DNA from: a virus
Lineage: Duplodnaviria > Heunggongvirae > Uroviricota > Caudoviricetes
Reading direction: 5' to 3' (one strand)
Length of the DNA stretch: 14,579 nucleotides
Virus record (IMG/VR): IMGVR_UViG_2529293240_000014
Below, piece by piece: positions 1 through 6,445 of the stretch (its first letter is position 1; every line of letters starts with the position of its first letter). Both the position numbers and the translations under genes were made by a program. The notes under the pieces are model-generated. The model worked only from the letters and a program-made list of their open reading frames with translations. It was not told the DNA's origin and made no database searches.

Positions 1-480
1 GTGGCGGACCTGACGTATGTTGCCACACAGGAGGGATGGTTGTACCTCGCTGGCATCAAAGATGTTTATACGTGCGAAATTGTCGGCTACGCCATGGGAG
101 AGCGCATGACAAAAGAGCTGACAGGTAAAGCCCTGTTTATGGCGCTCAGGAGCCAGCGCCCACCTGCCGGGCTAATCCACCACTCTGATCGAGGTTCACA
201 GTACTGCGCATACGATTACCGGGTCATACAGGAGCAGTTTGGTCTGAAAACATCAATGTCGCGTAAAGGTAACTGTTACGACAACGCTTCGATGGAAAGC
301 TTCTGGGGAACGCTGAAAAATGAGAGCCTGAGCCACTATCGTTTTAATAACCGGGATGAAGCCATCTCAGTAATACGGGAATACATTGAGATTTTCTACA
401 ATCGTCAGCGTCGTCACTCTCGTCTGGGGAATATCTCCCCGGCAGCCTTCAGGGAAAAATATCATCAGATGGCTGCTTAA
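1..480 (+). CDS. IS3-family transposase OrfB, C-terminal fragment (5' end outside window)
   Basis: Translation carries integrase-core motifs typical of IS3-group OrfB (HHSDRGSQY, SMSRKGNCYDNA, YNRQRRHSRLG). Stop at 478-480. Confidence 0.85.
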   Translation: MADLTYVATQEGWLYLAGIKDVYTCEIVGYAMGERMTKELTGKALFMALRSQRPPAGLIHHSDRGSQYCAYDYRVIQEQFGLKTSMSRKGNCYDNASMESFWGTLKNESLSHYRFNNRDEAISVIREYIEIFYNRQRRHSRLGNISPAAFREKYHQMAA

Positions 481-522: not shown

Positions 523-600
523 AGTGATTAACACAGATGCTATAGCAACAGCCCCGCCACCAATAGCAACTGCAACAGCCTTGCGTAATGATGGCGACAT
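523..600 (-). pseudogene. SAR endolysin (phage 21 R-like lysozyme), N-terminal ~26 codons only, truncated by the IS insertion
   Basis: Minus-strand ATG at 600-598 overlaps the holin stop (TAATG). Translation [26 protein letters not shown] is a signal-anchor-release N-terminus; the frame then reads into IS-derived sequence and stops. Confidence 0.6.
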
Positions 601-815
601 TATTCACCTCTCGCAGCCTTACGCTTGTCTTCTCTTATTTTGAAATACAGATTCGTCAGATAAGTCAGAAGCCCCAGAAGCAGACTTCCCAGCACACCAA
701 TCGCAGCCCACTGTGACGGACTGACCTGATCAAGCCACTGTAAAAGCCAGTAGCCGGCACTGCCGGCGGAGGTGCCGTAGGCAATGCCCGTTGACATTTT
801 GTCCATAGATTTCAT
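600..815 (-). CDS. Class II holin / pinholin (phage 21 S-like, EssD-like), 71 aa
   Basis: Start ATG at 815 preceded by GGAGGTGAGG. Translation [71 protein letters not shown] with dual-start motif (M1/M4) and two TM segments. The ORF-track extension to 902 has no RBS and spans a terminator hairpin. Confidence 0.85.
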
Positions 816-875
816 AACCTCACCTCCGCAAATAACGGATGGCGTAGCTTTACACTGAGAGACGAAAAGGATTTG

Positions 876-898
876 AAAAAAAGCCCGCAAAAGCGGGC
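876..898 (-). terminator. Intrinsic terminator just upstream of the holin gene
   Basis: Plus-strand aaaaaaa-GCCCGC-aaaa-GCGGGC; on the minus strand this is a GC-rich 6-bp hairpin followed by a 7-U tract. Confidence 0.5.
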
Positions 899-1106
899 GC
901 AACGGAATCTACAGTAAGGAAAGCACTCTATCCAACAAAACACCCACAGTTAATCGGAATAAAAGCAGAGTGCTTATGAATGATCGCCTGCCCGAAGGTT
1001 GGTATTTCTGCACAGCAATTTTGCAAAAAAGACGAGCATTCAAAACGCAAACGTCTTTCAGTCACTCCGTGCTTTCCCATCATCGCAGACTGAAAGACTT
1101 TAACTT

Positions 1107-1178
<72 letters not shown>

Positions 1179-1181
1179 ATA

Positions 1182-1257
<76 letters not shown>

Positions 1258-1259
1258 GC

Positions 1260-1336
1260 TGGCCCACCACCGAGAACTCGAACCTCGCACCGTCAACTTA
1301 GAAGGTTGATGCTCTATCCGGATGAGCTAGCGGTGG
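1260..1336 (-). tRNA. tRNA-Arg (anticodon UCU, reads AGA), phage argN/argO-type
   Basis: Reverse complement folds as a cloverleaf: acceptor CCACCGC/GTGGTGG (one G-U), D-arm GCTC/GAGC, anticodon stem TCAAC/GTTGA with loop CTTCTAA, T-loop TTCGAGT, encoded CCA. Confidence 0.75.
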
Positions 1337-1337
1337 T

Positions 1338-1414
1338 TGGTGGCCCTTGCTGGACTTGAACCAGCGACCTGGCGATTATGAGTCGCTCGCTCTGACCAAC
1401 TGAGCTAAAGGGCC
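1338..1414 (-). tRNA. tRNA with CAU anticodon, ileX/ileZ-like (tRNA-Ile2, lysidine type, reads AUA); Met cannot be excluded
   Basis: Reverse complement GGCCCTTTAGCTCAGTTGGTCAGAGCGAGCGACTCATAATCGCCAGGTCGCTGGTTCAAGTCCAGCAAGGGCCACCA. Perfect acceptor stem, loop CTCATAA, T-arm GCTGG-TTCAAGT-CCAGC; close to E. coli ileX as recalled. Confidence 0.8.
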
Positions 1415-1502
1415 GGAGGCAGAATAATAACCATATGTCATCACATCTGCAAACTCATCTGACCACCAGCACGTTTAACGTCCTGTGCCGTTTTTCAGGT
1501 AT

Positions 1503-1527
1503 AAAAAAACCCGCATAAAGCGGGCTC
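1503..1527 (-). terminator. Intrinsic terminator downstream of Q (tR'-like)
   Basis: Plus-strand aaaaaaa-CCCGC-ataaa-GCGGG; on the minus strand a hairpin followed by a 7-U tract, about 80 nt downstream of the Q stop. Confidence 0.55.
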
Positions 1528-1603
1528 TTTCAAATGTCCATGTCTGCTATTCGCCTCGCGGTACAGCTTTGCGAAGCGTACAAGAATTGAAGCAGTTTTT
1601 ACG

Positions 1604-6088: not shown

Positions 6089-6445
6089 TTATTCAGTTCT
6101 GGATTTTGTCGCCCTGCGTATCCGCGCTTTCGCGTTACGCTCAATCTGTATCAGCTTTTCTATATTTCTCCGCCTTTCCTGTTCCTCCTGGCGCAATAGC
6201 CTTACATCATCTGCCAGTCTGGTTTCTCTTTTTGCCACAGAGAGCATCCAGTCAAACGGCTCCACAACCGCACCGCAGATTTTACAGCGGACCTGACGCT
6301 CTTTTTCGTCAACCCGTACAGAGGCGTGATGGCAATATGGTCTTTCCGATGGCTCATAAAGAAAATTAACCTGATTACGAGGGTCATCCTCTTTTATCGG
6401 AAATAAAACGATATTGCTTAACTCATCTTCTGGTTTTATTTCCAT
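6089..6445 (-). CDS. Hypothetical protein, 118 aa, putative zinc-ribbon plus basic coiled-coil tail
   Basis: ATG at 6445 preceded by AGGAGAGGAG. Translation MEIKPEDELSNIVLF...PYCHH...CKICG...; C-terminus rich in R/E/K/Q. Sits in the lambda ninB position; no family recognised. Confidence 0.55.
   Translation of the reverse strand: MEIKPEDELSNIVLFPIKEDDPRNQVNFLYEPSERPYCHHASVRVDEKERQVRCKICGAVVEPFDWMLSVAKRETRLADDVRLLRQEEQERRRNIEKLIQIERNAKARIRRATKSRTE

Follow-up and report, generated by a model that had tools for sequence, protein, structure and literature searches.

An inverted repeat behind a prophage tRNA array belongs to a conserved structured RNA

Introduction

In lambdoid prophages, the stretch between the antiterminator gene Q and the lysis genes houses toxins and other cargo, and is known to give rise to abundant small RNAs, STnc100 and PasD, with effects on host regulation (Zhu et al. 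2026, bioRxiv 10.64898/2026.05.13.724894; Pearl Mizrahi et al. 2021, PMC8550237). These RNAs are ~200 nt long, structured and terminator-ended, and are encoded on the late strand past Q, immediately ahead of the holin gene. In phage 933W the corresponding order is Q, pR', pT, ileZ-argN-argO, terminator, stxAB, S (annotation of Plunkett et al. 1999). There, the promoter is annotated as “pT, putative tRNA promoter,” and the terminator lies 14 nt after argO and is followed by stx.

RNAs linked to tRNA genes are known from other settings as well. The 3'ETS-leuZ of E. coli, the 3' external transcribed spacer of a tRNA operon, reportedly acts as a sponge for small RNAs; it lies between the last tRNA and an intrinsic terminator, would be released by tRNA processing, and carries a terminator hairpin and U-tail after a single-stranded stretch. 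Among phages, the T4 tRNA cluster includes the stable “species 1 and 2” RNAs, and the large GOLLD and ROOL RNAs adjoin prophage tRNAs; these too are structured, encoded by phages and physically linked to phage tRNA genes, and have no known function.

Here we analyze a 14,579-nt stretch of DNA from a virus of the Caudoviricetes (IMG/VR record IMGVR_UViG_2529293240_000014; hereafter “the window”), in which a tRNA array is followed by an inverted repeat. The repeat forms the outer stem of a helix, P1, and we are highly confident that this helix opens a conserved, structured RNA of ~225 nt, which is non-coding and is read from the minus strand between ~1103 and 875. This element shares its slot and general build with STnc100 and PasD, but has no sequence or model similarity to them, and they are not tRNA-linked. 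With 933W it shares a homologous promoter (TTGCAG-17-TATTAT-CCTGCGCCC), a homologous first tRNA and a terminator before the cargo or lysis genes, but 933W has neither P1 nor the core of the RNA (domains P2 and P3), and the structured RNA fills a space that is 14 nt there. The likeness to 3'ETS-leuZ is one of layout: the leuZ spacer is ~50 nt long and lacks an elaborate fold, whereas the element has ~225 nt, three covarying domains and a kink-turn-type helix, and is prophage-borne. To T4 species 1 and 2, GOLLD and ROOL there is no detectable sequence or model relationship, and sizes and hosts differ.

Results and Discussion

The tRNA operon and its neighborhood

The late strand of the window is the minus strand, and the region around the tRNA array is organized as follows:

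2158-1607, minus strand: Q-type antiterminator gene (DUF1133/Phage_antitermQ)
~1530-1503, minus strand: terminator-like hairpin, the expected tR', not flagged by the terminator scan
1424-1452, minus strand: sigma-70 promoter, homologue of “pT,” with -35 TTGCAG (1452-1447), a 17-nt spacer and -10 TATTAT (1429-1424), from the promoter scan
1107-1414, minus strand: array of four tRNA genes, namely CAT (Met/Ile2), Arg-TCT, Thr-TGT and a decayed Gly(UCC) reading “Val-TAC” (ARAGORN and Rfam)
600-815, minus strand: holin S, phage-21-type class II (Pfam PF04971, E = 2.6e-35), the first gene downstream of the RNA
1-480, plus strand: 3' part of an IS3-family transposase (rve domains), adjoining the holin S side with ~480-600 in between

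Between promoter and array, a GC-rich 9-nt discriminator (TCTGCCTCC) runs up to the tRNA 5' end at 1414. Of 39 distinct upstream sequences, 37 share the whole pattern, TTGCNN-17 nt-TATTAT/TATCAT-9 nt GC-rich-GGCCC, with identity falling to only 35% over the 22 nt beyond the promoter, and the same promoter motif is the one annotated as pT in 933W. Because this conserved homologue of pT precedes the array, we consider the promoter, the four tRNAs, P1-P2-P3 and the terminator as one unit. Its RNA fills the interval from the last tRNA to the operon terminator, which is the position of a tRNA 3'ETS, and from this layout we infer that tRNAs and trailer RNA are co-transcribed from the tRNA promoter. 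The element is thus tied to the phage tRNA operon physically, and probably transcriptionally.

The layout is shared by the closest chromosomal relatives, in which nothing is annotated from the last tRNA to the holin. At the last array position, relatives carry an intact tRNA-Gly(UCC), which we take to be near-identical to host glyT. In the host chromosome thrT follows glyT; the idea that P1 might be a relict of thrT was considered and rejected, as a comparison by eye showed no similarity. In the window itself, the IS3-family fragment comes immediately after holin S, so that the endolysin gene starting at 600 is truncated and the prophage lysis-defective.

Two further features of this neighborhood were observed. 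From the end of Q to the terminator-like hairpin (1503-1588, minus strand) there is a short transcript-like unit, presumably the pR'/tR' “6S-like” RNA, with weak, sub-threshold Rfam matches to isrK and Trp_leader. In the second tRNA (1260-1336, minus strand; loci L002-L151) the body, CCGCCACTAGCTCATC...GGTGGCGGACCA, is constant and the anticodon loop hypervariable: it reads Lys-TTT, Arg-TCT, Phe-AAA/GAA, Leu-TAA or “stop” TTA across relatives, and in some copies the loop is 5-6 nt long and defies assignment by ARAGORN. The second tRNA might serve as a decoy for anticodon nucleases, or as an escape from them.

The inverted repeat as an RNA hairpin

The first-pass annotation had reported 1053-1063 (GTCTTTCAGTC) and 1088-1098 (GACTGAAAGAC) as exact reverse complements around a 24-nt loop; the 11-bp match and the 24-nt spacing are confirmed, and the repeat can be extended to 14 nt at 93% (1050-1063 with 1088-1101). 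Dinucleotide shuffles of the window contain on average 0.15 perfect inverted repeats of at least 11 bp with a loop of 3-40 nt, and 12% of shuffles contain at least one, so that the repeat by itself is only mildly unexpected. The window has two such perfect 11-bp repeats. The other one (6399-6409 and 6433-6443, GGAAATAAAAC and GTTTTATTTCC, 23-nt loop) lies near the start of a minus-strand ORF.

As minus-strand RNA, the 56-nt hairpin has a predicted folding energy of -19.4 kcal/mol (z = -4.2), which none of 200 shuffles equaled. The stem begins 8 nt after the last tRNA, which ARAGORN ends at 1107, and a U6 run (1031-1026) follows 22-27 nt beyond the stem, so that the stable hairpin behind the last tRNA-like gene and the U-rich run some 20 nt further on both stand as first described. 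The two functions proposed for it, processing and termination, fared differently. A role of P1 in processing at the candidate tRNA-trailer junction is plausible. The reading as an intrinsic terminator was rejected: the stem is A/U-rich (4 of 11 pairs are G-C), the loop is large, the stem is directly followed on its 3' side by GUUUGCG rather than an abutting U-tract, the U run pairs within the P2a hairpin described below, and the terminator scan finds only 898-883.

A broader version of this idea is that the structures help to halt pT transcription before the holin, and so insulate lysogens from lysis. A constitutive-looking promoter does stand 600 nt upstream of S with only the terminator at 898-875 in between, and the same logic applies to 933W, where the terminator comes right after argO. 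Yet 933W copes with a bare terminator 14 nt after its last tRNA and no P1, P1 has no terminator features, and intrinsic termination does not require covarying helices 150 nt ahead of a canonical terminator; this function is quite improbable.

A larger conserved fold

Alignment of relatives yielded 60 distinct 247-nt variants that fall into two main clades, and RNAalifold on 30 representatives gave a consensus of P1, P2 enclosing P2a, a two-part P3, and a terminator. The parts of the element map to the window as follows:

1099-1106, minus strand: A/U-rich single-stranded spacer AGUUAAAG from the tRNA 3' end to P1 (from sequence), a candidate RNase E entry site
1053-1098, minus strand: P1, with an 11-bp outer stem (1098-1088 with 1063-1053) enclosing the noted “24-nt loop” (inverted repeat, folding and covariation)
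974-1045, minus strand: P2/P2a region, with the long-range helix P2 (1045-1031 with 989-974; RNAalifold and pair counts) and, within it, the hairpin P2a (1029-1022 with 1012-1005), which has the conserved loop AAAUUGCUG
923-973, minus strand: P3, with a helix 973-966 with 930-923 and an inner helix 958-948 with 941-931
875-898, minus strand: intrinsic terminator, GCCCGC-UUUU-GCGGGC then U7 (terminator scan, 898-883), ~60 nt upstream of the holin S start

Overall, 97.9% of cells in the 66 consensus pairs of the 30 variants are paired, vs. 38-47% when partners are slid by 1-3 columns. Both sides have changed in 14 of the 66 pairs (1-9 in the slid controls), the covariation score is 0.245 (at most 0.092 when slid), and none of 500 column shuffles attained the observed pairing or covariation score. 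The individual domains agree: double changes occur in 5 of 15 pairs of P2 (97.7% of cells paired) and in three pairs of P3 (99.6%), P2a is paired in 99.2% of cells and uses the U run past P1 as its 5' strand, and the terminator stem covaries by clade (GCCCGC/GCGGGC vs. CCUCGC/GCGAGG). Most double changes separate just the two clades, so the number of independent compensatory events is small. Single-stranded motifs of the RNA are invariant, and P3 contains a near-invariant GU-rich motif, GGGUGGUUUGUUGG.

The fold belongs to the minus-strand transcript and not to its complement, since 260 cells hold G-U against 11 with A-C; pairing amounts to 97.9% on the minus and 84.7% on the plus strand. P1 follows the same pattern, with compensatory and G-U changes in relatives: all 11 outer pairs are kept in the 30 variants, two of them with double changes (UA/CG and CG/UA) and one alternating between A-U and G-U. 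A covariance model built for P1 alone gives 74.1 bits for the minus strand against 21.3 for the plus strand. P1 occurs once per locus: neither the window nor any of 26 related or comparison loci contains an extra copy, and 933W yielded none.

These observations bear on whether the repeat acts at the DNA level instead, as a protein operator, a recombination site or the scar of moron exchange. It is perfect in DNA, it occupies the slot in which 933W carries stxAB, between the tRNA-operon terminator and S (a positional match that the first-pass annotation had pointed out), and mosaic junctions lie at or within P1 in relatives (the Fels-1 moron, L140 and L008). However, the changes are strand-specific, with A-U replaced by G-U in 13 of 30 variants, which on the other strand would be A-C; the asymmetric internal loop is invariant, where a palindromic site would be symmetric; the covariance model strongly favors the minus strand; and a single copy is present per locus. 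We regard a DNA-level function as very improbable. As to the suggested scar of cargo exchange, the compensatory changes and the invariant internal loop show that P1 is no scar, though the mosaic junctions of relatives give the idea of cargo exchange some substance.

A coding function is easier still to set aside. A 51-codon ORF (ATG 1083 to stop 928, minus strand) is open in the window, but only in 3 of 60 variants, the rest having a stop at codon 6 or 15; 1-nt indels are common among variants of the RNA, and the ORF has no Shine-Dalgarno sequence upstream and no Pfam match. The probability that a small protein explains the conservation seems to us practically negligible.

A kink-turn-type core within P1

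What had been called a 24-nt loop keeps its spacing but is not an open loop. By its sequence signature, it corresponds to a kink-turn-type internal loop, followed by a 4-bp helix and a variable loop:

1064-1087, minus strand: kink-turn-type core of P1 (from the alignment column-to-coordinate map)

The 11-bp stem is followed by a bulged U1087, the pairs G1086.U1064 and C1085-G1065, a 3-nt bulge GAU (1084-1082), and tandem G1081.A1066 and A1080.G1067. Beyond these come an inner 4-bp helix UGGG/CNCG (1079-1076 with 1071-1068; consensus UGGG/CCCG) and an apical loop (1075-1072) of 2 to 4 nt that is freely variable (AAAG, AAAU, GUC, UUC, UUA, UUG, CUC and others). The core columns (bulge, GA/GA and flanking pairs; 21-29 and 39-42) are invariant in 30 of 31 distinct variants, whereas the outer stem varies. 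Kink-turns, such as Kt-7 of 23S rRNA or the box C/D motif, consist of a canonical stem, a 3-nt bulge, tandem G.A/A.G pairs and a second stem, and the order found here, GC-GAU-GA-UGGG ... CCCG-GA-GU, agrees with that pattern. P1 resembles these structures in its stem, 3-nt bulge, tandem sheared G.A/A.G and non-canonical stem. The Fels-1-type P1 departs from the consensus, with 2n G changed to U and a mismatch atop the C-stem.

P1 also contains AUGAUGG/CGGA, which resembles box C (RUGAUGA) and box D (CUGA), a match at the sequence level only. This kink-turn or box C/D-like signature therefore accounts for the sub-threshold Rfam matches of the P1 region to C/D-box families, which are weak and far below threshold. 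Identity as a C/D guide RNA was accordingly rejected (Rfam sR43, 17.0 bits vs. a threshold of 45; ceN44, 16.0 bits vs. 70). We know of no L7Ae-type kink-turn-binding protein in E. coli, nor of any protein partner for a kink-turn-type helix in enterobacteria. Were P1 a genuine kink-turn with a recruited protein from host or phage, the RNA and the tRNA array, with its hypervariable second anticodon loop, could form a decoy or counter-measure against host tRNA-targeting defenses rather than an ordinary base-pairing small RNA; we attach little probability to this variant.

The window's own copy of operon and RNA looks decayed. In its tRNA-Gly (1107-1178, minus strand), the anticodon loop CUUCCAA has become CUUACAG, 1 nt is deleted from the 3' acceptor strand, and CCA reads CAA. 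Within the RNA, C1070 is changed to A, with the loss of one inner-helix pair of P1, and G940 to T in the near-invariant motif of P3.

Distribution and modularity among relatives

Of 5426 complete E. coli genomes, 536 contain the 240 nt from tRNA to terminator, in most cases with 90-95% identity. The stretch also occurs in phages PhiR47_1, phi467, vB_EcoS-689R5 and vB_EcoM-606R7, and in HK639 at 74% identity; Salmonella phage Fels-1 carries part of the element, as a disrupted copy. Motif scans of IMG/VR matched more than 120 contigs each. With one genome per species, the exact P1 motif was confined to E. coli and Shigella flexneri, apart from two chance matches inside coding sequence. The repeat is widely present in related prophages, where its absence had been named beforehand as counting against it. 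In every case a Q-type gene precedes the element and a holin gene follows it, with variation in the type of both.

To avoid circularity, loci were sampled through the P2a loop motif rather than through P1, which gave 133 places. The exact P1 motif is present in 110 of them; four more have a P1 with point changes and the core kept, and two have a Fels-1-type P1. In five loci tRNA-Gly is joined straight to P2, with P1 cleanly absent, and in eleven a small hydrophobic membrane-protein ORF replaces the tRNAs and P1 ahead of the P2-P3 core. The latter (L134, L137, L139, L143, L144, L147-L149, L152, L154 and L156) share a 38-codon ORF, MGVWMIALILIASLIAGVVIYIDVISDFIIDANFLHLP, for which a Pfam search gave no match. 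Other arrangements include P1 and core but no tRNA (L022), and a near-consensus P1 (70 bits) ahead of a core that has diverged strongly yet retains a long-range helix (L034). P1 is therefore an optional module, and because it is dispensable in some lineages its role is not essential to the core.

Several junctions fall at or within P1. The breakpoint of L140 lies inside it, and L008 has lost the 5' arm by a deletion from GATGATG of the tRNA-Gly variable region to GATGATG of the P1 core. The P1 apex resembles the tRNA-Gly T-arm (GAUGAUG-GGG...CCC), and the L008 deletion joins exactly these repeats. In Fels-1 (L133 2008-2063, 2251-2613 and 2629-2704), the moron ORF STM0906.1n separates P1 from P2, and the 5' strand of P2 is partly duplicated on the side of the moron that faces P1; cargo can therefore enter at that junction. 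STnc100 was seen in tandem directly after the element in HK639 (L003 1206-1411, minus strand), and three times around the disrupted element in Fels-1 (L133 1402-1615, 1816-1938 and 2939-3157, plus strand). As STnc100 copies sit beside the element in both phages, the Q-to-lysis leader looks like a string of terminator-ended RNA modules.

The same survey allows a role in cis to be weighed, in which RNase P and RNase E would excise the tRNAs from the Q-antiterminated pR' transcript and leave P1-P3 at the 5' end of the late lysis message, shielding S-R-Rz from 5'-end-dependent decay. Consistent with such a leader, the element always follows the tRNAs and precedes the first lysis gene in the same orientation, and in almost all variants P1 starts no more than 8 nt past the tRNA 3' end. 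On the other hand, it always has its own terminator, followed by unrelated sequence (STnc100 in HK639, several holin types), the core occurs without any upstream tRNA at some loci, and a simple stabilizer needs neither invariant single-stranded motifs nor a kink-turn core. We consider this leader role unlikely, if the least unlikely of the alternatives to the mechanism proposed below.

Relation to described RNA families

A search of Rfam 15, including a permissive search on 251 nt, returned only tRNAs and sub-threshold noise. STnc100 (RF02076) gave no match up to E = 10 in 860-1110 and was rejected as an identity, while the same model detects copies of 138, 83 and 59 bits in Fels-1 and one of 53 bits, adjoining the element, in HK639. 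For the PasA-D and EcOnc08 type, nhmmer with the element profile found nothing significant in the PasD1, PasD2/PasA and EcOnc08-type loci (L131, L132 and L004); the published fragments and E2348/69 loci of AgvB/AsxR/EcOnc and PasA-D are unrelated in sequence, and PasA and EcOnc08 lie on the strand opposite to that of the element. The conserved motifs, used as strings, retrieved nothing relevant in the literature searched, the literature on STnc100 and on prophage external-transcribed-spacer RNAs does not describe the element, and none of the public records examined annotates it.

A possible route from tRNA operon to regulatory RNA

We lean, if only modestly, toward a pT-driven tRNA-trailer RNA that is released, stable and acts in trans as a regulator or sponge; the trans role is the part of which we are much less confident. 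In this scheme, pT would transcribe the operon in lysogens, and RNase P and RNase E would free the tRNAs, with the RNase E cut placed in the A/U-rich 8-nt spacer. RNase E prefers A/U-rich RNA and AGUUAAAG resembles one of its sites; in relatives the spacer reads GUUAAAG, GUUAGAG or GUUUAAG. Such processing would leave a stable trailer RNA whose 5' end is P1. The latter may act as a protective module for the new 5' end, as a module for protein or tertiary contacts via the kink-turn, or as both.

The core, made of P2, P3, a single-stranded stretch and the terminator with its U-tail, would then be a small regulatory or sponge RNA, like leuZ 3'ETS. A single-stranded stretch leading into a terminator hairpin with a U-tail is what one would expect in a small RNA of the Hfq type. 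Complements of two conserved single-stranded motifs occur in the window at chance level only, giving no target in cis. The terminator would, in addition, keep pT transcription out of the lysis genes in lysogens, with Q-modified polymerase reading through it in lytic growth.

Implications

The element is a further RNA family in the Q-to-lysis stretch, absent from Rfam 15 and from the searched literature. Its kind is already known, from structured small RNAs in the Q-to-lysis leader and from tRNA-trailer-derived small RNAs; the tRNA linkage and the kink-turn-type helix distinguish it within that kind. Carriers comprise about a tenth of complete E. coli genomes as well as Shigella, with a disrupted copy in Fels-1. 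For annotation, this means that non-Stx prophages do have something in the seemingly “empty” stx slot. If release and stability of the RNA hold, prophages would have their own counterpart of the tRNA-trailer sponges, and with it a handle on how tRNA processing yields regulators.
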